NCBI GenBank assembly: GCA_963575745.1
Contig: CAUYUJ010000314.1
Coordinates: 124,001 to 188,000 of the forward strand
Source: Prorocentrum cordatum
Taxonomy: Eukaryota
DNA length: 64,000 nt
Direction: 5' to 3'
Position numbers and translations under genes: made by a program. This document shows positions 6,337 to 41,652 of this stretch, piece by piece (position 1 is the stretch's first letter; every line of letters starts with the position of its first letter). The notes below the pieces were generated by a model that was given only the letters and a program-made list of their open reading frames with translations, was not told where the DNA came from and made no database searches.

Positions 6337-7365
6337 ATGACGCGTCCTTCAGGATGCACACGATCCCGCCTTCTGACTCGCTTCCTAGTTCCAGTGCAGC
6401 GCTCTCATGAATTGGTCACAAAGCGGGAGAAGCTTCTCGCTAAACAGTTGGAGGAGTTGCAGCAGCGCATGCAGAAGCTGGTTGGAAGTCACAATGGTAC
6501 GGAGTTGGAGTCCAAGGAGCCCGCCATTCCTCCCTGGGCTAAAGGCACTGGAGTGGCGGTCAAGCGTGAGCGTCTCGCCAAGCTTGGTAGCCTCCTCAAG
6601 CTCCTGTCGGGGCCTGAAGATGCCGAGCAGCGTGCGGTGTATGAGGCCGAGAAGCAGCGATTGCAGGCCGAGCTCCAGGCTGACAAACCAATCGAGGCCA
6701 ATCTGCAGGGGCTCACCAGCCAGCTCAAGACCGCTCGCACGAAGCTATCCAGTATTGCTGTCAAAAAAGAGGCTGCTCGAGCGACGCTGGAGAAGGCCAA
6801 GCTGGCCCTGGCGCAGGTCGAGCAGGACGAGCATGATGCTAACAAACATATCCTGGAGCTCGAGGAGAGGTTGCGCCACGTGGTCGGTCCCGCGGTGCAG
6901 TTCGATGACAAGTCACCATCCCTCTCCACATTCTTACCAGGCATGGAGGCCACGGTGGAGCAGTTTGACGCCGTGGTCCGCGCGCTGGGCGGCTCGGAGC
7001 GTTTCAGTGCTGACCTCATCGCCATGCGCGCTCTGGTGCAGAAGCTCAAGGAAGCCCCAGAGGCGGCAGCCGCGCCCGAGCCGCCTCAGCACGAAACTCA
7101 GTCCACTCCTCCTGAGGCTCGAGAGTCCATGGATATCGACGACGCTGAAGATCAGGATCGTGCTAATGCTCACGTCGATAGCTTGGACGGTCGCACTTGC
7201 CGTGAACATCTCAAAGAATGTGGCATTGATGTCGACGTGGGCGGGGATGATGAGGAGATTGACGATACAAAGGAGCGTGAGTTACGGGACAAGCTCAAGC
7301 GTCATTTGGCCCAAGTTCGCATGCTCACCAAGAAGTTCAAGACCAGTGGTGCGACCGCTGCGTAA
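6337..7365 (+). CDS. LINE ORF1-like coiled-coil protein (342 aa; may be N-terminally incomplete)
   Basis: Heptad E/K/L/A-rich helices (EAEKQRLQAELQ, ARATLEKAKLALAQVEQ), GC3-biased codons, directly upstream of ORF2. Confidence 0.75.
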   Translation: MTRPSGCTRSRLLTRFLVPVQRSHELVTKREKLLAKQLEELQQRMQKLVGSHNGTELESKEPAIPPWAKGTGVAVKRERLAKLGSLLKLLSGPEDAEQRAVYEAEKQRLQAELQADKPIEANLQGLTSQLKTARTKLSSIAVKKEAARATLEKAKLALAQVEQDEHDANKHILELEERLRHVVGPAVQFDDKSPSLSTFLPGMEATVEQFDAVVRALGGSERFSADLIAMRALVQKLKEAPEAAAAPEPPQHETQSTPPEARESMDIDDAEDQDRANAHVDSLDGRTCREHLKECGIDVDVGGDDEEIDDTKERELRDKLKRHLAQVRMLTKKFKTSGATAA

Positions 7366-7420
7366 AGTGTTCGGGGGCCTTGTTGTGGTGATGTTCTGTC
7401 TTTGCTATCCGTTTGTTGCA

Positions 7421-10400
7421 ATGACGTCGCCTACTGCCCAAGAAGAGCTGACCACAGCTCACAGGCGTTCTCTTCTGGACGATCCTGACGTTGACCCCTT
7501 TCAATTTGATCAAGCTGTGGACAATCAGCCTGATCTGCCTGGGCCATGTGCTCAGGATGCCCTTACTGCGTCTTCTGCAAGGGCAGCTACTGCGACCACG
7601 GGTGCTACGCCATCGTCTCGGTCGCTACACTCACCTGCCCTCAGGGGGCAGGCAGAGAGCGCCACATGTGCACCGTGCGCTTTGACGTGGTCGGCCCCTT
7701 GCTCGACGAGAGTTGATGGCACTACTGGGCGACTCGATGGCATGCATCCTTTAGACCCTGGCAGCACGCACTGCTCACCACGTTCGCCCGATGGGCATCG
7801 CGTGGCAGAGGGTACCGACTGTCCAGGGGTTCGTCGACCTGATGTCAAGTTTGCTGGACAGGTGAAGGGCAAAAGCGACTCTCTGATCGTGACGCTTAAC
7901 TCGAGCTCGCTGGGTCCACTGTGCGACTACCTGGTGGACAGCACCGCTCACGTGGTGCTGGTGCAAGAGCATCATGTGCCTGATACCAAGCTGGGTGAAC
8001 GTCAGTCGCAAGTTGAAGACACTGGCTGGAGAGGGCTTTGGGGCCCTGCGGTGCCCAACCAGGATGGAGGGTCGGGCACTACTGGCGGAGTTGCAGTTTT
8101 GGTCAGGTCACACATTCCCATCAAGGCGCCTCCTGGCCGCGCTAGCCATGTACTTGTCCCTGGCAGGCTGGTGGCAGCGCACGTCATGTCATTTCTGCCT
8201 GGAGGAGTGGTCTTCCTGTCGGCTTATCTCAAGGACGGTGAAGGGTACGGACCGTGCAATGCCGAGCTGGTGTGGGAGATCATCGAGTACCTGTCAGTGC
8301 TCAACGGCATGCAGATTCCGTGGATCATCGGCGCCGATTTCAACATGCCGCTCACCGCCCTGGACCAGTCCGACTGGATTGCGGCGGCTGGAGGTCTGGC
8401 TTTTGTGTCTGAGGCGCCCACTTGCAGGCAGGTTTCACCAGGCACGCACATAGATTATTTCATTTGCAGCAGCTGGCTGGCGCCAAAGCTTGACCCCTGC
8501 ACGTGCGTATTGGAGGCGGCCACCACATACCCTCACCTCCCCGTCCAGCTGACTTTGAGGGCTCGGGAGACGCCCGTGTGGGCTCGGGTTGCCAAGGTCC
8601 CGAAAGCCTTCCCGTCGACCCCTCCCATTGGCTGTGCTAGACCTCCGATTTATCCGTGGCACGCTGTTCTAACGACCGCTGCCCCGCAGGTAGATTCCGT
8701 TGCCAAAGTTGCTGATTTTTGGGATTTGGTCCTCGAAGGGGTGGAAAGAGAGCTGGCCGCCAGGTGGGACCGTGTTGGCGTTGCCGCCGAGGCCTACGTG
8801 GGCCGCAGTGGGCCTCTTGAGGTCCAGCTCAAAAAGCTTGTCTGGACTCCCCCCAGAAGGAGGACTTATAAGGATCCACAGGCACGTGCCTGGGCTGTAG
8901 CTCTTGGGTGGGCCAAACACCTTGGCAAGGCCAGAGAACATCTCAGTGAGCAAATCAGGCTGTTGCAAGTTTACGAAGCCCCTTGTGCTGCTGCGCCTCG
9001 CCAATGTCGCAAGCTTGTTTCGGCTTTTGAGGAGTTCAGTCGTTTCATGGCCAACATCGCCCGCTGTAAAAAAGTGCTTGGTTGCCTTGATTCTGACGTG
9101 CGTGATTTCTTCAATGGCGGCTTCGCCGTTCTTGCACGTCCCGATGTTGCCAGTATGCTTACTAAGATCTACATTCGGGCGAAGTCTGCCATCGCCCGCG
9201 CGGAGAATGCAGCGTCCCAGGCCTGGAGGCAATGAGCCAGGGATGCTTTCTCTGCTGGCGCCTCGAAGGCTCACAGGTTCTCAAAGGTAAAGGCCATCCA
9301 AGAGGTTTTAAGCAACCAGGCGCGTGAGGCTCCCCACCAGCAGGCCGACGCGGAACTCGATCCCTGGAGGGAGATTTGGTTGTCCCATGGTTGTTCGGTT
9401 CTCGAGGTTCCGCGGGGGTCCATCAGCTGGCCCAGTCTGCCGCGTATCACGGCCGCTCAGGTGGAGGATGCCGTTCACACTTACCCCACTCGCACTGCTG
9501 GAGGCATGATGGGGATTCACCCAAGAGCTTTAATACACCTGCCTAGACAGGCTTTCTCGGCGATTGCAGAACTCTTTAACCTTTGCGAGTTGCACCTGGC
9601 TTGGCCCAGGGAGCGAGTTTGCAATGAGATGTGTCGTCTCGCCAAACCAGATGGTGGGACTCGACTGATCGCGCTCGTTTCTTTGCTGTGCCGTGTCTGG
9701 GGCAAAGTTCGCAAGCCCATCACCTTCGACTGGCAGGAGCGTAATGATTGCCACGCTGTTTGGGGGACTCGTCGGGGCTACAGCTCCTCAGACAGTGCTT
9801 TCGCTCATAACATTGCTGCCGAGACGGCGGCGTTGGTCGGTGATGTCTCCATTTCTGTCCTCTTAGATATGATCAAATGTTTCGAGATGGTGCATTCGGA
9901 GCAGCTGCTGAAAGAAGCTGAAGCTTTGCACTTTCCAATGCGGCTAGCTTGGATGCTGGTGGATCTGTACAGGCAGCCACGGCGTCTTCGAGCTTTCGGC
10001 AGTCTATCTGTGCAGTTCTGCTCGCATCAGGGCATCCTTGCAGGGTGCAATCATGCGACAGGCATGCTTTTCCTTCTCACGCTGCGCGCTGTGCGTAGGC
10101 TCAATGACATTTCGCCCTGTATCACACCGAGAGCCCTAGTCGACGATATATCGATTCAGCTCGTCACTTCGGATCCTCGGGACGTCCGTTTCCTGGAACG
10201 TGCGGTGAAAGTGTTCACTGAAGATGCCAAGGTCCTGGGGCTCCACTCCAATGTCAAGAAGTCGGGGCTCATTGCAGGGAACACAGTGGCTCGGAAGGTG
10301 TTCTCGAGGATGGCTGCTCGGCTGCGCCTACCCGTTCGTAAGTGGATGAGAAACCTCGGGCATGAATTGGCTGCTGGTCGGGTTGTTCGCACGCAGGAGA

Positions 10401-12700
10401 AGAAAAGGTTGCAGGCTCTCAAACGTCGTCGAGACAAGTTCGTTGCGTTGAAACATGCTACTGGCAAGCGTGCAACCCGACTGTGGAGGACTGGAGCTCT
10501 CCCAGCAGCTGGACACGGGGGATCCGTGTCGGGCATCTCAGACACTGCGCTGAAGTATTTGAGGCAGCTTGCGGCTACGATCGCAGGGGCCAAGCAGCAC
10601 GGTGGCATTACCTCGTATCTGCTGACGCAGGCCGATCCGCAATACGACCCGATCTACGACTCCACTACTGGTGTGTGTGTGAAGTTCGCCACGTTCGTCT
10701 GGGACGGAAGGTTACAGTTATCGAGAGTGCAACGTGCTTGGACCCGCCTGAGAGACATCATGTCCGACAACCCTACATGGCAGCAGGCTCGAGGTTCGCT
10801 GTCGGCGGTGTGGCTAAGCTTGTTTCGCATTGGCTGGACGATGACCAATGCCCACACCTTTCGCAGCGATCTTGGTACAGATATTTCGCTGCTGGTGGTG
10901 TGTCCAAGTGACGTGCGTATTGCGATTATTGAAGGTGTGCAGCGGTGGCAGATTCGTCGGTTGCAGCTGCATCTTTATAATACTGACCCTCCAGAAGGAG
11001 AGCCTTGGTTTCGTGCGCTACGTAATGGTATACGTGCTGTAAAAGACCAGAGGGCTCTTGGGGCCCTGGCGGCCGTCTGGGGGAATGTTATTCCGCTACC
11101 TGCTGCACTTTCTGCTCTACAATATGACGTACCACCTGCGTGCCTTGCCTGCTCCGCTCCTCAAGGTACGTACGGACACGTGTGGTATGCCTGTTCTAAG
11201 TTCATCACTGACGACGGGATTGACGCGCTGGGTGACGAGGTTCCTGAGGCCTTAGCTAAGCATAGGCGTGTTCTGATTGAGTCTCGGGCCTCTATCACTG
11301 GGGAGCCCGATGTGCACTCTAATTATTTAACTTATGGTATCCCACCTCTGCCCACTAATATTCCCGCTCCGCTTGCCAACCCTCCCATTTTCGAGTTTGG
11401 GGACGTCTCAGGGTCTTGGGGCCCTCTGTCTTTCACTGACGGTAGTTGCTTTCACTCTGGGGTCCCAGAGGTCTCCAGAGCTGGTTGGAGCGTTGTGCAG
11501 TTGTTCGATTGTCTGCTTCCATTGAGGGCAGTATATGGTGCGCTTCCAGGGGAGCGTCAGACCATAGGTCGTGCTGAAAGGTGGGCTGTGCGGCAGGGTC
11601 TTGCGTATCACCCCCAGCATCAGTGTATTGTGTCGGACCTCCAGGCTGTAGTGCGCGAAGGCAACTCGTGGAGCCTGCATCTGTCTCAAGGCATGGCCAA
11701 GCATGCGTCGATCTGGAGGTCCATTTTTGACTTGAAGTCTAGCCACCCCCAGTTCTCGTGGTTCCCTGCCCATCTGAGTTTTGACGACGTTTTGGAGCGT
11801 GGGCTGTGCATCAAAAGTTGGGCTGGGAACCTGTGGGCTGATTTTTTCGCCAAACTAGGGGCCAGCTCTCACACGCTTGCTGAAGGTTTCTGTGCTGCGG
11901 TTTCAGGATAGTTAAAATATCATAGGTCCACGGTGCGGTTTATCGCGTGGGCTGCTCAGCGTCTGCTCGAGTCAGGCACTTGGACTCATCTCGACCCCGA
12001 GCGTCCTCTCCGCCTCCTGAGAGCCCCCGCCCCTCCCAAGGTCACGGTCACCAGCCATGTTTTGTTTCGCTGCGAGGCCACCAGCACTTACAAGTGCAGG
12101 AGCTGTGGCCGCGTAGCTCGCACTCCAGAGTCGCTCAAGAGCCTGCTCACGAGCAGGGACTACAGTGTTTGCTCTCCGTCTTCGATCCAGCGACACGTGT
12201 GCGACCAGTGGTTTCGTGAGTTTGGGGCGGCTTTTAGGCCCGTGCAGCTTGAAGCGGTGAGGGTTGCTCTGGCCGCCGCTGACGAGGCTCAGCGCGTGTG
12301 CAATGATGAATTCCAAGGTCCCCCGACTCCTGTGGCTACTCCTGAGCCGTCAGATGAGTTCTCTGCGTTTCGGGACCTTGGGCACGACGTGTTCCGTCAT
12401 TTGCATGTGTACTGTTGTAAATTGTGCGGGGCTCACGGATCTCTTGGCTCGCTGCGAAACCTCACGCAGCGTTGTAAAGGGAGGTCCAAAGTTCCGAGCA
12501 CGGCCGCCAACCAGAGAATGTCGATCAGACGTCTGGAGCGCGGGTGTCACCCTAGAACGGGCGTGAAGATTCTTGGGGCTACCGAGTGCGGAGTTGACCG
12601 TGCGGAGGAGCCCCACAGTGCTGATAGTTCAAGGCCGCTGGAAGCGGCCAGTGCTCCCGAACCCGTTCCCGATGGAGTGAGTTCTGGGTCGTCTGATTAA
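7421..12700 (+). pseudogene. LINE ORF2 polyprotein (APE-RT-CCHC-RNase H-Cys/His tail) with in-frame stops at 9233-9235 (TGA) and 11909-11911 (TAG)
   Basis: ORFs 6407-9235, 9380-11911 and 11933-12700 share one frame. APE ~7880-8560: VTLN, VLVQEHH, IIGADFN, HIDYF, PHLPV. RT ~9450-10400: KPDGGTRLI, LDMIKCFE, QGILAGC, LVDDI. Knuckle CLAC-x8-H-x4-C at ~11141. RNase H ~11430-11865: FTDGS, RAE, IVSD, WFPAH, GNLWADFFAK. Tail: CRSCG and HxxxxxxxxxxCKLCG. Start codon uncertain (7391 or 7421). Confidence 0.92.
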
Positions 12701-30050: not shown

Positions 30051-30659
30051 CCAAGATTCGTGGCCATCCTCCTGGGGCCTATGTGGGTGGCGCTCGCAGG
30101 CAGCATTGTGCTACTGGCAAGCATGGCCCGACGCACCGCTGTAAAGACGTGTGTTGCTGCTGGTGTTCGCAGGCGCGCGGTTGCGTTCGTAGGGTCCTTG
30201 CTTGTGGCGTTTGCAGACTATTTTGGTTCCCACAGGCATGGCGTCGATCCCGCAGACACTTGGGAACTGTCACGGTCCAGCATACTGTAGTGCATGCGTA
30301 TGCGTATGTTGCTGTTCTTGTTCTCAGGCGCGTTTTAGTGCTCGCGCGCACGTTGTGGTGGTCGCAGATTTGTCGCGGTGCCCGCAGGCACATGGTGGCG
30401 CTGATGGGTGGCCATTGTGGTATTGGCCAGGTTTGACATAGCGTTGTACATACATGTGATATTGGCGTTCGCGTGTTCAGCGCGGTGCTCGCAAACGCGC
30501 CTCGCTGTTAGCAGGCTGTTGCAGTGTTCACAGGCGTTGTGCTGGCCTCATCTTATCCAGCTGCCTGCGGCAAGTCCCGACACCGTGCCAGTCCAGCATG
30601 CTCGGCGGCGTTCGCTCGGGGGGGCACGGGGGGCCCGCACTCGCGAGGGGTGAGCAACA

Positions 30660-31990
30660 TGGAAACGATGATGATGACGACGACGACGGCGATGATGGTG
30701 ATGGTGATGGTGATGGTGATGGTGATGGTGATGGTGATGGTGATGGTGGTGATGGTGATGATGGTGGTGATGGTGGTGATGGTGGTGATGATGGTGATGA
30801 TGGTGGTGATGCTGATCGCTGGGATTGCGTGGGGGGCCTCTTGGGTGCCTGTTGGAGGCAGTGTTGATGCCTCTTGGCGGCCGCCTGGGTGCCTCTTGAG
30901 GGCCTCTTGGGGGGCCTTTTGGGGTGCCTCTTGGGGCTTCTTGGAGGCCCCTTGGGGCCTTCTGGTTGCCTCTTCGGGCGCAGTGACTCTTGGAGGCCCC
31001 TCGGTGCCCAGAATAAAATAATCAGAGGCGGGATCCCAGACACGGGGTCTGGAATGAGGGCCCGCTCTTTTGGTCAACGCGGCCATCGGACACGAACGGT
31101 GCAACGCGAAACTCTGGTCCAACTTGCATGCTGCCCCGCACACCTACAGCAGGCAGGAGACTCTCAACCAGAACATGTGGCGCAAATATTGACATCTATC
31201 AGTGATCTGAATGGTTACCGCGGAACTCTCACACAGAGGTCCATTGCGCCACTTTTGCGATATATCAATGACCTGAATGGTTGCCGCACGCATCTCAATC
31301 ATCATCCAATGGAATGTCATCATCGTTCTGCTCCTCCATGGCACCGATCTCACGGTGGGCACGCTCCTCCCTGACCTTGTCATCCGAGAGCGCGTTGTCA
31401 GCGAGGTGGCGGAAGTTCGTGACCGCTGTCCTGAGCGTTTTCACCCGCATGCGGAGGGCTTTGGACGTTGCACGCTCGATCAACAGCAGCTTGATGAGAC
31501 GGCGGAACCGCTTCCTCACGTACCGAGGGTTGCCAATGGGCACGCTCTGGACGATGCCACGAACCATCGCGTTGTCAAGAAACCGAACCACAAGCACACT
31601 CACAGCCAAACAGCTATGGCCAGCCACATCGACAAGAAGCATGAACTGGAGGTTGGATGATGATGATGATGGCGACGGTGATGGTGATGGTGATGGTGAT
31701 GGTGATGGTGATGGTGATGGTGATGGTGGTGATGGTGATGATGGTGGTGATGGTGGTGATGGTGGTGATGATGGTGATGATGCTGATCGTTGGGATAGCG
31801 TGAGAGGCCTCTTGGGTGCCGATTGGAGGCAGCGTTGATGCATCTTGGCGACTGTCTGGGTGCCTCTTGGGGGCCTCGTGGGGGCCTCTTGGGGTGCCGC
31901 TTGGGGCTTCCTGGAGGCCTCCTGGGGCCTTCTGGTGGCCTCTTCGGGCGTAGTGGCTCTTGGGGGCCCCTCGGGGCCCAGAATATAATT
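30660..31990 (+). repeat. Two direct copies of a (GATGGT)n + GGGGCCTCTT repeat module (30660-31020 and 31655-31990)
   Basis: Both continue GCTGATCGyTGGGATwGCGTG...GGCCCCTCGGkGCCCAGAATA; a shorter copy lies at ~18950-19170. Confidence 0.88.
31295..31567 (-). CDS. Hypothetical 90-aa basic helical protein with acidic tail
   Basis: ATG 31567 MVRGIVQSVPIGNPRYVRKRFRRLIKLLL...EEQNDDDIPLDDD*; GC3-rich, non-repetitive; 0.8 kb downstream of the transposase on the same strand. Confidence 0.5.
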   Translation of the reverse strand: MVRGIVQSVPIGNPRYVRKRFRRLIKLLLIERATSKALRMRVKTLRTAVTNFRHLADNALSDDKVREERAHREIGAMEEQNDDDIPLDDD

Positions 31991-32391
31991 GGAAGATTGA
32001 GGGGGCAGGGGTACGGAACATGATTTGAGGATTGAGGGTGGCACTTCTGCGTTCCGTCGCGTGCAGACCACCGCGACCGCTCAGTTGGAACGATGGCGCG
32101 AGCTGGCACAAGCATCTGGAGGGCCCGACTCCCTCCCTCCAATTGCCGCCGAGAGTTGAGGGGGAGTGAGAGAGAGAGAGAGATATATATATATTAAAGA
32201 GAAGATGGGGGCCCAAGAAGGAGGGCGAGCAGGGGGGGGGGGCATGTGTGAGGATTTGGATAAGGATGGGGAGACGTCGAAACACTGGGGAGAAATAGTA
32301 AGAAGGGGGTGGACGTGGCGATACAATGATGATGATGGTGATGATGATGATGATGATGGTGGTGAGGATGGCGATGATGGCTCTCAGTGCT

Positions 32392-35300
32392 CTACTCAGG
32401 CTCTGGGCCCTCGCCGTCACGCCTTGGCCGCTCTTTCTCTAAGAGGGCCTGCACCCCTGGCAGCAGTTCTAACGCGCGGCGCGCCTCTGCGCGCTCCTGT
32501 AAGGTGGGAACGCAAGCATGCTTGTGAAGGTCCCTTGTCGGGAAATCTGGGCATCGACACTTTGCGAGCCGTGCTGCAATGAAACCCAGAGGTCTGCCCT
32601 GGGCACGTCTTCTCCCTGGTCTCGCAGTCCGCGTGACCTGGCATCTGCCGTGATCTTCTCTGTTGTTGCAATAACCATAGATGTCTTCTGATGAAGCATA
32701 ATAGACAATGGAACCTCCAGGTACGTACACAGTTGGATTGTCCATGTTGCGAGATCCAGCAGGGCCCCTATCAGGGCCTAAACCACCAGGGTCGCCAGGG
32801 CCTCCTCCGCCGCCGCCATGCTGGTCATCCTGCGGGGGGCCATCCTGCGGGGGATCCTGCAGCGGTGGCGGCGACGGTGGCGGCGGCGGCGCTGGTGGCG
32901 GCGGCGGCGGTTCGCCGCCGCCCCCCAGCGCCAACTCCTCAGGATCCCCGTCGTCGCTGGTGGGGCTGCTGGACGTGCTCTCCGCCAACGGCGGCGCGCC
33001 GCCGTGGTCGTGGTCGGACTCGGGCTCGTGGTCTGACTCGGGGGCAGCGGCTGGCACAGGACCAGGCTCGTCTTCCTCAGAGGGCTCCGAGCCTTCGTCG
33101 TGGCCGTTCCCCCACGAGGCTCTCTTGGAACCGTCGCCCTTCCGCGGTGGCCAAATTGTCCGCAGAAGTACACCGTCCATGGGCACCGCTGTCACGCAAT
33201 TGGGTGTGACAGAGACAACTGGGCGCATGTCGGGTTTCAACATGAAATACGATACTTGCCATTTGAAAGAGCGGTCCACCCTGGACATCGCCTGGACGTC
33301 GTTCTGGAACTCCGCCTGAGCTCGCAATGTAAGTTCCTGACCAGGCGCAACCACGCCTTCAGCATCAAAATCCAAGCATGGCCCGTCCATAATATGAAAC
33401 ATGGCTTTGTGGGGCGAGAGCTGCTGTTTCGCAATGTAGCACCACCGATGCCGCACAACCTTCGGCTCACAATCCATTGGGTCATCGATCAACGGCTTGG
33501 CAACGAAAACAGCGAATACTTTAGCGTCCATAACCAGTTGTCGGGCGATAGGATGCAATGCTGGACTGAACTCCATCCCCCAATCATTCTCGCGATAATT
33601 TTCCCTCATGTTCCACGAATCCAAGCCATCACCGCGACAGAGGCACACACCATAAGTACAGCATTGAGGTTTTTTGTTTCGATCTGGGAGAGGTTCCTCG
33701 TCAGCACCACGTTGCACCACTTCGTGGATCGAAGCCCAGTCGCGCAAGATGACCTCGTGGACGCCCCTGCCAATTTTCGAGTGGGGGCTGAGTGCCACGA
33801 GACGCTTCGCCTTCTCGAGCAAGTCAATATAACTAAAATCCCAATGCGTGAAAATTTCTGAGAGAGCTGGCGTTGGCAGCACGTCGTCCACGGGCGCGCC
33901 CATGTCTGCGAAGCCAGGGATCCGCGAGGCAACGACATCACGCTGGCTGGACATGTATTCCTCCAACCGTTTGGTGCGTGCCTTGTTCGCTGACCTCTCA
34001 CTCTTTGCGGCATCTCTGATAGTCGACAGCACATCTTTGACTTCAGCCCACGAAGATGCTACCAGCTCAGACCCTGCAGCACAACGCACAAGTTGTCCGC
34101 TGTTGCTTGCGTCAGCGTTGCTGTCGAGGATGGCTGCCACTCTAGCTCGAGCAGCCTCTCGCCCCATAGCGCGCTGCCTCTCTCTCTTTCTGCGCCCAAG
34201 CGGGTTGGACACGCCGTGGAGGCGACGCCGAGCGGTGGCGTCGTTCCCCTTCTCCTTGAGTTTTGCAAGCCTCTCAGGGTCCTCAACTCGAATGCGCCTA
34301 AGCTCAGCATGCGCTTCCTCCATGGTGTGTCCAGCAGAGAGCTGCTCGCTGAAGAATGCCCTCTGAACACCGCCAACTCCAGTCCTGCGCACCTTAGCCT
34401 TCGGTGGTGGTGGTCCAAGATCACTGTCGGGAGGATGCTGAACTGGTTGCTTGCGCTGGCCGCCAGGTCGAGTGACCTTCAAGCGCCTCCGGAATCCCTG
34501 GATCAGGCGGCATGCGCTGATCAATTCATGTCGTGGAGTGTGCGCCTGCACGGATAAGCCATGCAGCCAGCGGCGAAGCGAGGCGTGAGTAGCTTCAATA
34601 GGCGCTTGATCACACAGCGCAAGGAGCATAACGCACAACAACTCAACTGACGCGTCATGCGAAGTAAGGTTGTCGCCATACCTTTCCAAGAAATCTGCAC
34701 TCCAGGAATCCTTCATCCCGCTGCAGTCGGATCGAACCTGTCTAGCGTCAGAAGCAAAAAACACGATTTGTGACGGATGGGGAGGAGGGGGAATGTTGAG
34801 GTGGAGGAGAAGGAAGAGGAGGAGGTTGCGGGGGCCATGGAGGGGGAGGGGTACGTACGAATTGCGAACACAACGCGATATACAAACATTCACACCCGTA
34901 CAATTGTGAGTCAACTTGCTGCCTTCTCCTCCCGCCTCTCCCCTCCCCCTCCCCTCCCTCGTCCCCCAACTCCCCTCCTCTCTCCCCCGCCCCTCCGTTG
35001 TTTGTGTGCTACAGGCTACAGCAATTCCGCAATCCCTCGGACCTCATCGGCCAAAGACAGGTCATCGAACAGCCTGCCCATCTTGTACGGGTAGCCACGG
35101 TGGTGGTCAATCAGGTAGTGCTGCACCTCTGCAGCGGCACGTGAAACAAGCGTGAAACAAAGATGTTGAACGTCTGCTCGCCGATATCCAGCTGGGACGG
35201 CTTCCCACTCCGCATCGGCGAAGAACAAATTCGAAAGTGATTGGATGCAGCAACCCTCGTGCTTATTATGAGCTGCAAGGAGCATGCGGTAGTCTCGCTG

Positions 35301-37352
35301 GCGAAGGCCCCCGAAGCCAACCGACTGGGATTCGTCGAAATGCTTCTCTTGTTGCACGCGCTCCCACGCGGACCCCGACACCGTCAACAGCTCTTTCATC
35401 AATACTCGAAGCGGATCCATCGTGACCCGCAGCGCGACGACCAAAGCATGAGGCGATTCGTACAGCATCCATCTCGCAGCGGTCTCCCTCTGATGGTTGT
35501 TCTCCTTTTCGTAGTTCTTAGCAGCATCAGTCGCGCCTTCCTGAAGCCCATCGCTTCCATCAGCTGGCGGACCTTCTGGGCCGACGCCGCCTGCGACAGG
35601 GTGGGTGTCCAAGAGGGGTGGGAGTTCGACCGCGGCTCGGCCAGGCACGGGCAGCAAGGACTTTGGCACAGCACCTTTGTTCAAGATGACCACAAATTTC
35701 GTGAAAGCGGCCGTCCCCAGACCATGAATGCCATCCAAGAGACCAAGTGCATCGAGAGTCAAGTCGGAGCCCGTCCACCTGGATCTCGGAAATATTTTGG
35801 GTGAAGCCCCGCATAAAGCTTTCGCGAAGTATGAAAGAAACCAATGTCGCACTGCCTTCTCCTCCCTCGGCGAGCTCATGGTCCAGTGTTCGACGGTCTC
35901 AGTATTCTCCCAGTTGCCATTTGCAAGGAAAGATATGACTGCCCTGCGCCCGACGTTGCGCTTGCCGCGACAGAAACACTGAAGAACTGCGCGTCGGTGC
36001 ACACTATTCCAAGAAGGAGGGGTACCGTTAATAATGCGGAGTCGCTTGTCAATGGTGTCTCGGAGGACCTGCCGAAATATTCTCATCGCCCCAGGCTGGT
36101 TAAGAGCAAGACTCCAGGTGACGATGGCAGAGATATCGGCCTCGAGTAATTTACCGACGTTCTTATGTGCATTTGCCCACCTATGCGTATGGCATGTGGT
36201 GTGGAGCGAAGGGTACCCATTAAAGATAGCAATGCACTCTTCAGCCTTCCTGACGGCAGAATCTCCATCAGTGCAAGATAAATGGATTTTCTTCAAAAAC
36301 ATATCCTCGCATGGGCCCAGAGTTGGCTCCGTTCGTTTGAGGGCCTCCACGTAGTCCTCCGCCGCTGTCGAAGCCAAGGCCTGCACTGGAGCGAAAACGT
36401 CGAAACTGACCAGCACGTGCTCTCCAGATCCCAACTTGAACAACGCAGAGATTCGCCACTCGGACTGGAGCAACTTTGCAGGCACCGCATCGTACGACTC
36501 CATCTTCAAAAACTCCACAATGAACTTGGGAATCTCAAGCTTAGACGCACGCTTGTCAACCAAGACTGCAGAAGAAGATGACGTGTTGTTGTCTTTCACG
36601 TTGATCTTCATCGGGGTCTCGTCGTACCGAACTTGTTTCACGAGCATCAAGGGTTGGCCTCCATCTTTGACCACAGCTGCTACCATCCTCTCCATCAGCT
36701 CCTTGTGCATGTACTTCTGCATGGCGAGCCCAGCGGCAGCGAGCTGTATGCGACGAAGAGACGGGATACCTCTATGCGTGCCCATCTTGCTGGCCATCGC
36801 CGCTGAACTCATAACAAATGGTTCCCCATAGAACATCTGATCTGCCTGACGCAGAACTGTTCCAACCACATTGTTTGAAGTGCTAGCCGCAAGAACTCCG
36901 AGGCCGACCTGATGCGTCAGATAATCGACTGGCGCTGCAGGGAGGAGAGCGGCTCCACTGCCACCGAGATCCCCGTCTGCAAGGACAAGTTGGCCGCCAC
37001 CTTCGGGGATCGCACCATTTGCACCTGTGCTGACGTCGAGTTCTCCATCGGACTCTGGCTCTGGCGTTCGATGCCCAATAACACCATTAACTTCGAACAG
37101 GCCTCCTTCAAGGAGGTCTGCATCGCCAGGTACTCCAGAAAACGCTGCATCGCTGTCGATCTCATCCGGGTCATCATCGTCGACCGCTGCTCGACTGCCC
37201 CAAGACCGTCGCGCCTTGGACATCTCCGAGGAAGCCCATGACGCGCGTTGGTGATGTGTAGCTGCTGCTCCTGCGCTGGCCCACGAAAGTCGTCGAGCGT
37301 CCAAGTCGGAGCCCGCTGCATCATGGTTGTCGTGGCCCCATGTTTTCCTCAT
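32392..37352 (-). CDS. Large DDE transposase-like protein (hAT/MULE/P-related CxxH group), ~1551 aa; exons 37352-35043 and 34737-32392
   Basis: Exon 1: VRYDETP (D1, ~36623), SCTDGDSA (D2, ~36269), CHTH (CxxH, ~36190), FPRSRWTG (RW, ~35780). Exon 2: IEATHASLRR (candidate catalytic E, ~34596), CCTYGVCLC and a C-terminal C/H cluster (CNNREDHGRC...GRPLG...H). The GT-AG intron joins DE|VRSDC in frame. Start ATG uncertain. Confidence 0.82.
34738..35042 (-). other. 305-nt phase-0 GT-AG intron in the transposase gene
   Basis: Minus strand GAT GAG|GTCCGA...CTAGACAG|GTT CGA TCC. Both junctions fall on codon boundaries of the two ORFs, and the intervening sequence is low complexity. Confidence 0.8.
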
Positions 37353-40300
37353 CCACGAAGCACTCTCACAGTACTGACCCACAAAGAAGGATTGGCAATC
37401 CACGCGCAGCGCTGCCACGGCAGCTATCTCAACCCACAAGACGAGAAAACGCATGGACGTACTGAAACATGGAGGCACCGAAGTGCAATATGTAGAGGCG
37501 TCAAAGCGCATATGGAAGAATCGAAACTGATAAGGGCCGAAAGGCCAGTGGCGCGAAGCCCGGTTCGACCCCAAATGGTTACGGGCGACGCGGGGGTAAG
37601 GGCGCAGGTGACACCGCGTGCGAAAATCCCACGGGGACGAACAAATACCCCGAACGCCGCCTGTTTGGACGAATATTGCCGCAGTTTTGAAGCCCTCGTG
37701 AGCTCGAGCTGCATTCTGGGGGCTGCATGGGGGGGGATGCGGGGCTACAGCTGACGACGGCTACTACTACAACAAACACTTCGGGGGTCGAATCCATCGG
37801 AACTGATATGGCGTCACCCTCGGAACGGCCTACAGCCGAGAATGTGGGCATTCAGCCCACCCAATCGGTTGCGTAGGTTTCATAACTGGCACCTGCCAAC
37901 CGCGGCCCCCCGCAACGCACGAGGGAAGGAGCGAAAGCCAGCGAGCGGCAAGCCAGCACAGCACCACGCGAAGCGAGGAGCCAGCGAGGAGCGAGGAGAG
38001 AGAAGGAAGGAAAGGGAGGAGCCCGCAGGCAGCAGCACGGCAGCAGCAGGGGGCGCGTGACATGCTCAATGGTCTTGCCTGCTTCTACTAACTGCACGTG
38101 TCCTACGTATCTACTGTACATATAATGTTGGAGCCCTGGGGCAAACCTGACCCTCCCCTCCCCCGCCCCTGCGCCTTCCCCGTGCCCCGATGTCTGGTTA
38201 CGCGCTGAGGTTCTGGACGCGCCGTGCAAATTATCCCACCCGGGCCCCCCTCCGCCCCCCTACGCACCCGCCCCCGCCGCCCCCCGTCCCCCACTTACCA
38301 CCCCCCCCCAACCCGCCACCCCACCATCACCGCGCTCGCGCGCACGCCAGGTCAGGACCACCACCACCTCGCCCTTCTCTCCTTATGACCGCTACCCCAC
38401 TTGCATTGCAAGTAACCCACGCCCCACACCGCGCACCAATAGTTTTTCAATTCGAAGGCAAGGCCCGCGCAGAGCCAGACCGTTTTTATGCTCGAGGCGC
38501 GCGCTGGTCCTTGTCGGCGAAGGCTTAAGCTGATCTGCGTAATCTGGGAAAGTTTGCGATGCACAAATGTCCAAACGAAATTGTATAGGGCATGAAAAAA
38601 GCCTCAGGGCGGCCGCGAGGGCGCCACGATGGTCGAAATAGTATGCATGGCATTGCCCCAGAAGGAGCAGATAATGCGTGTACAAAGGTTGCACAAGACG
38701 GCGCGCAGAGTCTCCAGGCCGTCGGCTGCAGCTCTAGATGCTCAGCGATGCCCCCAGAGTGCGCGGGGGTTGCTCGAGACCCCGCGCATGGAACCTCCAA
38801 GAGGCATCGGCGGCCAATGGGAAACGCGCGAGGGTACAACTGTGCATCCCAGGCGACTTGGATGGGCGGCAACTCTGCAGTGGCAGCGCATGCCCTCTAC
38901 GAATGCAACGATGGCAATGTACTATAGGGCTGTGTGCTCATAGGAAAACGGCGATGACCATGATGGGCTTCGTCGATGTCGGCATCGGCACAGCTTGCGC
39001 GGGTATGCAGGCTTACGTGCAGCGCGCAAATGTGGTTTGTATTGCTTTGTTGTTGAAAAGTGCCCCATGGCGTGTACGTCATGTGTTGGAGGCCGCCGCT
39101 CGGCGGCATTCCGACACGCCACGATGTGCTGGATGCGCGCGCAGGACACTTTGCCGAGTTGAGCGAGCTTGCAATGCCAGACACGGGGTTGCTGGGAGGT
39201 GACCGCGCCCCCTTTTCCATGAGCTTCCAGCGTTGGGCCACGCAGATCCTGCGCGGACGCACAGCGCAAGCCTTGCGGAGGTATCCACGGGAAGTGGGCC
39301 CCTTACTAATCACACAAAGATGTTTGAGTTGTGTCCTGTGTCGGCCACATGCTGCGAGTGTGCTTGGCACGTGCATGGGTTAGCGTTGGCGTTCTTGTGG
39401 GCTAGTTGTCGCGCGCAGCGTGCCGTCGACCTGGCTGGGCTGTCGACGCAGCGCGCTCAACCCAACAGCCGTGTTTCCCAGTTTCGTCGACCAATTTGTT
39501 GTCAACGCGCAGCGCGAAACGTTGCTGGCCACAGTCGCAAGCATCTGGCGGCTGCATTTCCAAATCGCGCCGAACTCTGGCAAACTCCGCATCGTAAGAC
39601 GCGCCACTTGTTACAAATTGCGGCATGGTTTCTACGCGGCGCGTCGTCATGTCGCGACGCACGACCGCGCGCAAACATTAATGCAAAAGCGCGGCTGCGT
39701 CAGGGTTTTAATGGTAAGTGCGGCAGGGGTAGAGGCGTGAACCACTATTCGAGACAGGCGGGACTACGATTCCACGTAGGTGTAATCTGCACGTCGCGGA
39801 TTTTCTGTTTTCGCCATGCACGTTCGACGCTGCGATCTCGCGTCGCGGGCACGCAACCCTTTTCGACTGAATGCATCTGCCCTACTGCGCTTGCGGGTCC
39901 ACAGAACATCTGCGCTCCCCCGCGACACAGCATCCCTCGCCCATGGATTGCTAGCCGAACGCGCTGCAGGAGCCAAGCCCACCCCCACATGCTGGTGGCG
40001 GTTCCGAGGGCTGAGGCTTACTTGCTGTTGTAATTCTTGAAATGGCGTCGGTAATTTTTGTACAATTTGACATTTGAGCGCCGTCGCATTTTTTCCATGT
40101 TCATTTGACACTTATTTCATAATTCCAGGGTTTTAACATAAACCCTCTCTGTGTGGGGCGCGTTGCATCACAAGGCAGAATCGGCGTCGCGCCGCGGGAG
40201 GCGTGCGCCTCGCCTTCCAAAGTTGATGCCGGCGCGTCGAGGTGCGCGGGCGGGGAAGCATCAAGCCAAGAGCCCAGCGCGCCCGTCAACCTGAAGGGGG

Positions 40301-40423: not shown

Positions 40424-41652
40424 GGCCATGTTATCTCCCCGGATATCAGAAAGAGCGTGTTCTACCGCTGCTGGCGGAAAACCGGGGGCGGTCACTACCG
40501 GTTCGAACCCCTCCCCCCCCCCCCCGTTCCGGAAAACCGGGGGGGGGTCACTGCCGGTTCGAACCCCTCCCCCCCCCCCCAGTTCATCATGAAAAGGAGT
40601 GGGGGTCACTACCGGTTCGAACCCCCCCCCCCCCTCGAAAACCGGGGGGGTCACTACCAGTTCGAACCCCCCCCCCCACTCGAAAACCGAGTGGGGGTGC
40701 GGACAGTGGTGGGGAGGGTGTTGGTGGGGACAGTGGTGAGGGGACAGCGGGACAGTGGTGGGGACAGAGGGACAGTGGGACAGTGGTGGGGACGGTAGTG
40801 GTGGGGACAGTGGTGGGGACAATGGTGGGAACGGGGGGGACAGTGGACAGTGGGGGGGACGGTGGTGGTGGGGACAGTGGTGTGGGGACAGTGGGAATGA
40901 GGTGGAAACAGTGGGACAGTGGAGGGTACAATGGTGGTGGGGACAGTGGTGAAGGCGGTGGCGAGGACGGCGGTGGGACAATGGGACAGAGGTACAGTGG
41001 GGACAATGGTGGGGACAGTGGGGACAGTGGTGGGAACAGTGGGACAGCTCAGTGGGACAGCGGAGGAGTCAGTGGGACAGTGGGGACAGTGGGGATAGTC
41101 GGGCAGTGGTTGGGTCCGTGGAGACAGTGGGGAGAGTGGAACCGTGGTGGGAACAGTGGTGGGAACAGTGGGGACAGTGCGACAGTGGTGGGGGCACTGG
41201 TGGGGACAGTAGGGACGGTGGTGGAACCAGTGGGGACAGTGGTGGTGAGGACAGTGGTGCTGGGAACAACAGTGGGGGATGTGATGCGGACGGTGGTAGG
41301 GACCGGGAGTCGTTTGCTGGCGGTGCGTGGGGGAGGGGGGTCGAACCGGTAGTGACCCTCCGGTTTTCGAGGGGGGGGGGGGGTTCGAACCGGTAGTGAC
41401 CCCCCCCCCCGTTTTCCAGATCCGGGGGGGGGGGGGAGGGGTTCGAACCGGTAGTGACCCCCCCCCGGTTTTCGAGGGGGAGGGGGGGGGGGGAGGGGTT
41501 AGGGGAGGGGGGGGTTTTGCCGGGCCGGGGGAGGGGGGGGGGGGGATTTTCGGAGGGGAGGGGGGGGGGCGACCCCCGGGCTCCGGAGGAAAAGGCTGGC
41601 AATTTTCCACAGTAAAGCGGCGGTGGATCACGCTCTCTCGGATATCATGGCC
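40424..41652. mobile_element. Foldback/MITE-like element: inverted arrays of ~45-55 bp units around a (GGGGACAGTGGT)n minisatellite
   Basis: Left 40477-40690: GAAAACCGGGGGGGTCACTACCGGTTCGAACCCC about x3-4. Right 41330-41475: reverse complement x3. Outer arm GATATCAGAAAGAGCGTGTTCTACCGC (40442) matches the revcomp of 41619-41646. Core minisatellite 40700-41275. Confidence 0.75.

Follow-up and report, generated by a model that had tools for sequence, protein, structure and literature searches.

Two long, anonymous open reading frames (ORFs) lie next to each other on the minus strand of a 64,000-nucleotide stretch of DNA from Prorocentrum cordatum (NCBI GenBank assembly GCA_963575745.1, contig CAUYUJ010000314.1, positions 124,001 to 188,000 of the forward strand), and the locus raises a twofold question: do the two ORFs belong to one gene, and, if they do, what kind of enzyme does that gene encode? 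Hereafter, ‘the window’ is this whole stretch, and all positions are counted from its first letter. The reading that we favor, and regard as very probable, is that the locus holds one copy of a two-exon gene encoding a 1551-residue, long-form member of a large family of hAT-like transposases of the Asp-Asp-Glu (DDE) type, found in marine protists and covered by no protein-family library.

One Gene in Two Exons

Exactly two ORFs of at least 500 aa (translation table 11; ATG, GTG, or TTG starts) were found in the region, both on the minus strand and in different reading frames. The ORFs, and the exons and intron that they suggest, are as follows.

35016..37574, minus strand: ORF 1, 852 aa from a TTG start, 914 aa from stop to stop
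32392..34914, minus strand: ORF 2, 840 aa from a TTG start, 883 aa from stop to stop
35043..37352, minus strand: exon 1, 770 aa from the ATG at 37352, with 1868 relatives; an acidic, W-containing N-terminal region, then RNase H-like strands, then most of the helical insertion domain
34738..35042, minus strand: predicted spliceosomal intron, 305 nt, GT...CAG, 58% G+C
32392..34737, minus strand: exon 2, 781 aa plus the stop codon (32392-32394); the E-bearing helix of the catalytic core and a C-terminal extension of ~700 residues

The donor edge reads ...GATGAG/GTCCGAGGG at 35043/35042, and the acceptor edge reads ...GCTAGACAG/GTTCGAT at 34738/34737. Between them, the predicted intron is of low complexity in its interior, which is rich in C and T, and it also has a T-rich tract and a CTGAC located 12 nt before the 3' AG. 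Removal of this intron gives a joined protein of 1551 aa with zero internal stops, in which YDETP lies at residue 243, TDGDS at 361, CHTH at 387, RSRW at 523, IEATHA at 817, CCTYGVCLC at 1129, and GRPLG at 1484. A preliminary description of this DNA, made from the letters and their ORFs, had proposed that the 852-aa and 840-aa ORFs join in frame across 35042-34738 and had listed these seven motifs; the join is borne out by the GT...AG boundaries, the 305-nt length, and the open 1551-aa frame, and all seven motifs are found in the order and places that it gave. The true start of the protein is uncertain because in-frame ATGs also occur at 37454 and 37511.

The junction was also assessed in homologous proteins, which are continuous over it, as the preliminary description had anticipated. 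When the joined window protein is aligned with 18 homologs by MAFFT, no insertion or deletion falls at the join; a four-column gap, common to 11 of the 18, lies six residues upstream. Three long homologs, P0003 (1545 aa), P0012 (1555 aa), and P0004 (1624 aa), align with exon 2 directly after their exon 1 matches, at E-values of 3e-34, 1e-43, and 2e-17, respectively, with matches that start at exon 2 residue 4-8 and reach its end, and uninterrupted homologs of 1545-1642 aa exist. Because exon 1 has 1868 relatives, and because long relatives are colinear with exon 2 too, the ORF pair is not a product of chance.

Could the same ORFs be explained with no intron at all, as separate genes, as a frameshifted pseudogene, or through frameshift read-through in the 35019-35043 overlap? 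The exon 2 frame is open through the whole intron (ORF 32392..35043), so that a single long frame would likewise result from a -1/+1 shift. However, a frameshift product would gain ~100 low-complexity residues, and none of the 18 aligned homologs has an insertion there; in addition, the GT...AG boundaries, the T-rich tract, and the CTGAC are all present. Related genomic loci are interrupted as well, at positions other than the window’s intron: L002 and L003 carry the gene in two pieces, with an AG/GTAAC donor and the Glu motif opening the second ORF, and L004 carries a family gene in three colinear pieces, i.e., with two interruptions. We, therefore, consider an intronless arrangement extremely improbable. 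Four runs of contigs, all labeled ‘DNA?’, include no contig that bridges the intron; in one of them, X1, which holds 70% of sampled words, contigs end at 34801 and resume at 35025, in a low-complexity stretch. Judged from the sequence, the two ORFs are one two-exon gene with a predicted intron, and neither of them alone is a complete enzyme because both Asp residues reside in ORF 1 and the catalytic Glu in ORF 2.

Predicted Fold and Active Site of the Catalytic Core

The family was aligned in sets of 134 and 77 sequences. Its near-invariant columns are YDETP (containing the first Asp), CTDxxxxNxxAE (the second Asp), CxxH, LPNGDW, YPRHRWTG, and IExxHAxxRR (the Glu), and the window copy retains 28 of the 30 near-invariant columns, including D244, D362, C387, H390, R525, W526, and E818. 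The candidate active-site residues are located as follows (row counts refer to the 77-row alignment).

36621..36623, minus strand: D244 (YDETP), first candidate catalytic Asp; D in 74 of 77 rows; corresponds to P0019 D92, mid-strand in β1
36267..36269, minus strand: D362 (TDGDS), second candidate catalytic Asp; D in 76 of 77 rows; corresponds to P0019 D208, just after β4
36183..36194, minus strand: C387-H-T-H390, the (C/D)xxH motif; C and H each in 76 of 77 rows; directly after β5
35775..35780, minus strand: R525-W526, the RW in the helical insertion domain; W in 76 of 77 rows
34594..34596, minus strand: E818 (IEATHA), candidate catalytic Glu; corresponds to P0019 E683, in the helix after the insertion domain

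The E818 column is invariant in a 38-row alignment of long forms and holds E in 70 of the 77 rows of the broader alignment. W526 would be a candidate equivalent of the Trp that positions the flank in Hermes.

The protein chosen for folding was the 753-aa homolog P0019, modeled by AlphaFold with the 77-row alignment at a predicted local distance difference test score (pLDDT) of 86.4 and a predicted template-modeling score (pTM) of 0.85. Its elements follow the order β82-99, β138-155, β158-166, α, β200-207, α, and β228-234; after β5, an all-helical insertion of ~400 residues extends to about residue 660 and is followed by a helix (680-695) that bears E683. D92 sits on β1, D208 at the end of β4, and C235/H238 right after β5. 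A Foldseek search of the PDB with this model returned Hermes chains in all of the top 10 places (best E 4.4e-4, probability 1.0). In an exhaustive comparison with VIA-align, Hermes (8edg_A) scored Z 14.4, with a root-mean-square deviation (rmsd) of 4.7 over 381 aligned residues (model 26-723 against chain 115-609); the next best rows were retroviral integrase cores (Z 7.4-9.0, 128-152 aligned), ISCth4 (Z 8.0, 260 aligned), Tn5 (Z 7.9), and the P element (Z 7.4, 263 aligned). Language-model features gave leads to hAT Pfam families, with scores of 0.83-0.84 that stand at the level of a lead.

According to this model, the fold of the family member is RNase H-like and interrupted by a large insertion made up of helices, and Hermes is the solved structure that it resembles most. 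The preliminary description had recognized a DDE transposase from the order D, D, CxxH, RW, and E; these residues are indeed among the near-invariant columns of the family, and the fold of the homolog matches Hermes best. The RNase H-like core that it expected is present in the P0019 model, and the convergence of the three acidic residues on one site, which it also expected, would follow from the topology of that model.

A Large Family from Marine Protists

Exon 1 was searched against 1.84 billion representative proteins, with family members counted in clusters at 50% identity. The search retrieved 1868 relatives at E ≤ 1e-3, 1037 at 1e-10, and 266 at 1e-30, and many of the best 150 are 1500-1724 aa long. 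Exon 2 is also matched by 65 of 151 family proteins, about 30 long ones over most of its length; a second class, 900-1000 aa long, extends about 100 residues past the Glu motif and no farther. The contigs that carry long forms measure 5.0-6.7 kb and those that carry short forms 3.5-4.9 kb, which suggests discrete units or transcripts.

Few members have named hosts. The nearest fragments, P0001 and P0002 (98% identical), bear the EukProt name Pyramimonas sp. CCMP1952, as does P0013, a 71% identical paralog fragment. A profile search with the 77-row alignment gave 33 proteins, none of which carries a Pfam domain and five of which are named Amphidinium carterae; other members come from metagenome or run assemblies. 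A search for related loci with a family alignment returned four metagenome loci and no viral loci (from 29 pattern matches).

The family is also absent from the libraries consulted. Both exons gave nothing above the Pfam cut-off, the only match being a sub-threshold DUF4715; none of the 68 homologs scanned reached a Pfam cut-off; and a phmmer search of PDB sequences with the window protein gave zero matches. No description of such a family was found in literature listings and the opening parts of abstracts, with Repbase and Dfam lying outside that search. From these sequence comparisons, the family appears to be large, to come from marine protists, with Pyramimonas and the dinoflagellate Amphidinium carterae as its named hosts, and to be in no protein-family library.

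Several features recur among family members. An acidic motif, [DEGS][GSA]W[GDSAE]x[LV], is present in 2-5 copies at the N-termini of many members, especially long forms, as exemplified by DGWRAL, DGWGSL, and DGWDDL in P0003; the window protein (37190-37352, minus strand) has four S/T-W-G/A sites within its first 55 residues. This motif may mediate protein interactions. An AT-hook-like RGRP motif, mostly 170-185 residues before YDETP, occurs in 49 of the 144 family proteins of at least 600 aa, mainly in short forms, and the window copy is without it. At the L002 locus (373-614 and 6906-7215), direct repeats of at least 218 nt, 97-99% identical and ~6.6 kb apart, flank the gene; a 27-nt motif, GCAAATTGATTCGTGGGAGTCTGATCC, occurs five times in direct orientation, and a 17-nt palindrome lies at 6953-6989. 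L003, from another record, is 99.4% identical to L002. The L002 repeats may be subterminal, may belong to a tandem array of genes, or may be ends resembling long terminal repeats (LTRs); they are no assembly overlap because they are 97-99% and not 100% identical and because the left boundary lies inside the contig. On these grounds, the idea that the ~6-kb contigs of long homologs are circular or tandem units was discarded.

The C-Terminal Extension

The preliminary description had noted ~700 extra C-terminal residues, and this extension is real: it is conserved in 40 of 112 family representatives. In the 38-row alignment of long forms, E48, R55, R56, and C365 (exon 2 numbering, used throughout this section) are invariant, and W334, C359, C367, and P442 are near-invariant. 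The model of exon 2 (pLDDT 70.5) consists of a three-helix unit (120-175), long helices (184-272), an α/β domain (286-530), a disordered stretch (536-665), and a compact C-terminal domain (667-781). Downstream of the catalytic Glu, these parts map to the window as follows.

34207..34395, minus strand: HMG-box-like three-helix domain, residues 115-177; pLDDT 87-95 over 121-170
33148..33882, minus strand: α/β domain and β-sheet part, with the Cys cluster C359, C365, and C367 (CCTYGVCLC)
32743..33132, minus strand: Pro/acidic/Gly-rich linker, predicted disordered; pLDDT <50 at residues 536-610 and 612-665
32395..32739, minus strand: C-terminal domain, four short strands plus helices; colinear in P0003, P0012, and P0004

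The three-helix unit is well predicted. Among 50 VIA rows for it, 12 are HMG boxes, with Z-scores of 5.2-6.4 over residues 102-177, values that lie below 8 and may reflect no more than a common arrangement. A SOX2 chain (Z 6.4) and an HMGB1 box (Z 6.3, with 52 residues aligned at an rmsd of 2.0) are the best of these HMG matches. At the sequence level, the long-form profile aligns to the whole NHP6A box with a non-significant E of 0.42, and the Pfam HMG_box model (PF00505) reaches 13.1 bits at best, against a cut-off of 25.4 (E 0.14, in one of 30 long members). From these matches, residues 115-177 probably form an HMG-box-like domain. The sub-threshold DUF4715 match mentioned above also falls on the HMG-like stretch (34198-34440, minus strand; E 0.0023, 18.4 bits against a cut-off of 27).

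For the Cys-cluster domain and the C-terminal domain, searched within the whole exon 2 model and not folded alone, Foldseek gave no match at E ≤ 0.001, VIA no Z of 5 or more, and Atlas no usable match; we make no claim of a new fold. The conserved pattern of the C-terminal domain is C..H..C...GRPLG..WL...H...ER..E..EP.

How is the extension distributed? In a FastTree phylogeny of 112 cores, the 40 long and 60 short forms are clustered to a degree matched by none of 500 shuffles, with at least 10 changes between the two states. The window protein, on a long branch, belongs to a starred clade whose 25 rows comprise 17 long, five intermediate, and three short forms. The tree is unrooted, and gain and loss of the extension are not distinguishable in it.

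Weighing the Assignment and the State of the Window Copy

Two further findings favor our assignment to a transposase family, namely transposon-like evolution, with a ratio of nonsynonymous to synonymous substitution rates (dN/dS) of about 1.3, and the presence of a LINE-like element (long interspersed nuclear element) in the same window. Several others weigh against it. P0019, and not the window protein, was folded, and it is 25-29% identical to the window pieces. The HMG-box assignment combines Z-scores of about 6 with non-significant sequence scores. Profile searches of PDB sequences with the family alignments gave nothing significant and did not recover Hermes. A Pfam scan of 38 homologs (E ≤ 0.01) found none at the cut-off and a sub-threshold T6SS_Vgr in two of the 38, and a scan of 30 long members and two window stretches (E ≤ 1) gave sub-threshold matches only. 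The window copy is altered at two near-invariant positions, R to H357 and C to G777. As for mobility, a tblastn search of the window for a second copy of either exon found only the exons themselves; X1 has no extra depth over the coding sequence (CDS), word-depth being not a copy number and, hence, weak evidence of a single copy; and no perfect terminal inverted repeat (TIR) of at least 9 nt with an 8-bp target-site duplication (TSD; ≤1 mismatch) was found in ~5.5 kb on each side, where imperfect TIRs are possible.

The comparison with X1 bears directly on the state of this copy. X1 contigs cover the CDS and both flanks, with a divergence of 0.35-1.15% in the CDS and 0-1.2% in the flanks, and because one of them runs from the CDS into the upstream flank, the X1 locus is the same locus in a relative that is ~1% divergent. 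Contig word-depth over the CDS (7-14) equals that over the unique flanks (6-19), at ≥85% identity. Among the differences listed, 26 lie in the CDS, 21 nonsynonymous and five synonymous, and the 12-kb stretch holds 110 further differences beyond those listed. Over 3546 nonsynonymous and 1107 synonymous sites, the listed differences give the dN/dS of about 1.3, which is compatible with neutrality (p 0.82), and an omega of ≤0.3 is rejected (p 9e-4). Separately, in an X1 contig, 106 nt upstream of the ATG (37626-37733) are replaced by 21 other letters.

The preliminary description had suggested that this transposase may be potentially active and had named an alignment of the flanks of copies as a way to obtain TIRs and TSDs. 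Is it a currently active, autonomous transposon copy? Its 1551-codon frame is intact and preserves 28 of the 30 near-invariant residues, its family is very large and varied, and at least one 71% identical paralog fragment (P0013) exists in the Pyramimonas protein set. Set against this are the single copy in the window, the X1 depth over the CDS that equals that of unique flanks, the two altered near-invariant positions, and the ends: neither a TIR with an 8-bp TSD nor a 12-nt TIR with a 2-10-bp TSD was found around the gene, as far as a single copy with possibly imperfect TIRs can show. The repeat scan of the window also gave no TIR or TSD for the gene, and loci L001-L004 define no element ends. 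With no extra copies at ≥85% identity, neutral substitutions, and no TIR and TSD pair within ~5.5 kb on either side, the suggestion of activity is not upheld, and we regard a currently active copy as unlikely.

The opposite possibility is a domesticated host gene derived from a transposase. The gene looks single-copy, occupies the same locus in two ~1% divergent genomes, retains a long open frame, and is accompanied by no TIR or TSD that we could find, all as expected of domestication. Purifying selection, however, is what the substitutions fail to reveal: 21 of the listed differences are nonsynonymous and five synonymous, neutrality is compatible with the data, omega ≤0.3 is rejected (p < 0.001), and the CDS diverges about as much as its flanks. 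Domestication is, in our judgment, very unlikely. The window copy, then, is best read as a resident, possibly immobile insertion of the transposase gene whose frame is still open and which is drifting neutrally; it shows neither the constraint of a host gene nor demonstrable activity.

Other Elements in the Window

Further repeats and a second pair of long ORFs lie elsewhere in the window. On the plus strand, at 6389-11911, a single stop divides two adjacent ORFs (948 and 891 aa). They match RVT_1 (E 2e-7) and Exo_endo_phos (E 4.6e-7), along with a sub-threshold RNase_H, as would suit a non-LTR retrotransposon of the LINE type; transposable elements are, therefore, abundant in the window. Immediately downstream of the gene, (GGTGAT/GATGAT)n microsatellites and GGGGCCTCTTGG-type repeat blocks recur ~1 kb apart (30650-30980, 31640-31950, and 32315-32398), two 266-nt copies being 79% identical, and the X1 depth is about 17,000 in the bin 31807-32207. 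On the other side of the gene, at 40475-41570, G/C-homopolymer-rich inverted repeats with the motif GGTCACTACCGGTTCGAACC and arms of up to 73 nt (88-96% complementary) flank ~700 nt of (GGGGACAGTGGT)-like tandem repeats. This region is a very high-copy repeat because its X1 word-depth is ~61,500, versus about 10 in the flanks.

Proposed Mechanism and Its Significance

Passages in PMC5499845 state that hAT and MULE transposases have in common the (C/D)xxH motif, a functionally important Trp, and long TSDs; that hAT, Transib, RAG, and MULE cleave DNA via a hairpin on the flanking DNA; and that the flank-positioning Trp of Hermes is W318. By analogy with these systems, the same fold and the same motif set would make DDE cut-and-paste with flank hairpins the most likely chemistry of the window family. 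In general terms, such a reaction can be divided into three steps. (i) End binding and nicking: the protein would bind the ends of its own element, and D244, D362, and E818, together with metal ions, would nick each end. (ii) Hairpin formation: the freed 3'-OH of the flanking DNA would attack the other strand, generating a hairpin on the flank with the aid of the conserved Trp and CxxH. (iii) Insertion: the excised element would insert elsewhere, i.e., cut and paste, as in hAT, MULE, Transib, and RAG. The HMG-box-like domain, located after the catalytic Glu, may bend DNA in the synaptic complex. For the Cys-cluster and C-H-C/GRPLG domains, our guess would be a role in oligomerization or in the choice of target or chromatin.

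If this picture is true, the family would offer a natural hairpin-forming, RAG-like DDE enzyme with a built-in HMG box, one protein uniting functions for which RAG and Sleeping Beauty rely on the HMGB1 of the host, and it would have implications for the way in which transposition and V(D)J-type reactions enlist DNA bending. If the lineage is distinct, it would be a large, unannotated transposase class in marine algal and dinoflagellate genomes and metagenomes, whose ORFs are now ‘hypothetical’. For annotation, two ‘anonymous’ ORFs become one gene, and the conserved residues and domain limits are usable for a family model.

Comparison with Known Transposases and HMG-Box Proteins

The closest known system is hAT, represented by Hermes of Musca domestica (PDB 8edg, 4d1q, and 2bw3), with which the family shares the DDE core, a helical insertion after β5, and a Glu helix thereafter. 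The motif order, D ... TDxxxxN ... CxxH ... RW ... ExxH[AS], is like that of hAT, whose conserved blocks the window family resembles. The differences are also substantial. Identity to Hermes is about 10%. The hAT Pfam models Dimer_Tnp_hAT (PF05699), hAT-like RNase H, DUF659, and BED are unmatched in the window protein and 68 homologs; despite this, the structural alignment reaches Hermes residue 609. The window protein is about 1550 aa long and adds HMG-box-like, Cys-cluster, and C-terminal C-H-C/GRPLG domains. Its D-to-E spacing (D362 to E818) is 456 residues, wider than the 324 of Hermes. Typical hAT elements have short TIRs and an 8-bp TSD, and an N-terminal BED zinc finger is common in hAT but not universal. 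The preliminary description had seen no BED finger, in agreement with the lack of a zf-BED match in the exons, 38 homologs, and 30 long members; no Pfam domain was detected in any of them. An interrupted gene has a precedent in hAT: a passage in PMC3942097 describes the five-exon BuT2 as an intron-containing hAT transposase gene.

MULE/IS256-type transposases, represented by ISCth4 (PDB 6xg8), have in common with the family the DDE core and, as parts of PMC5499845 describe, (C/D)xxH, an important Trp, and the flank hairpin; however, ISCth4 scores much lower than Hermes (Z 8.0 over 260 residues), and there is no MULE or SWIM Pfam match. The P element and THAP9 (PDB 6p5a) likewise combine a DDE core and a large insertion domain, the P element aligning at Z 7.4 over 263 residues; this score, however, falls well short of that of Hermes, and neither THAP nor Tnp_P_element is matched in Pfam.

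These likenesses raise the possibility that the protein has a DDE fold but belongs within, or is sister to, another CxxH superfamily (MULE, P, Kolobok, or Transib-like) and not hAT. The (C/D)xxH motif and Trp are common to hAT and MULE according to PMC5499845, no hAT Pfam domain is detected, and ISCth4 and the P element also align. Hermes, however, lies ~5 Z units above every other row, over 381 residues that take in the insertion domain as well as the C-terminal helices; every one of the 10 best Foldseek rows is Hermes; Atlas leads point to hAT families only; and the 456 residues between D362 and E818 are largely a helical insertion domain, as in hAT. We know of no solved structure for Kolobok and several other superfamilies with which to extend this comparison. 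Placement in another CxxH superfamily seems to us improbable.

We call the family hAT-like and do not file it as a member of hAT because hAT Pfam models are unmatched and no TIR and TSD pair was found within ~5.5 kb on either side of the one copy. Whether it deserves the rank of a superfamily, as the preliminary description had suggested, is doubtful, although possible. With equal reserve, we suggest that it could be an undescribed, superfamily-level, cut-and-paste lineage widespread in marine protists (at least a prasinophyte and a dinoflagellate), hAT-related in fold and chemistry only, with its own HMG box and two C-terminal domains whose fold is unmatched.

Finally, the family can be compared with HMG-box proteins. 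Residues 115-177 of exon 2 form a similar three-helix unit, with 52 of 62 residues aligned to HMGB1 and the whole NHP6A box aligned; the sequence scores, by contrast, are non-significant. The arrangement would also differ: HMGB1 is a helper of RAG and Sleeping Beauty, whereas in the window family the box would be built into the transposase itself.

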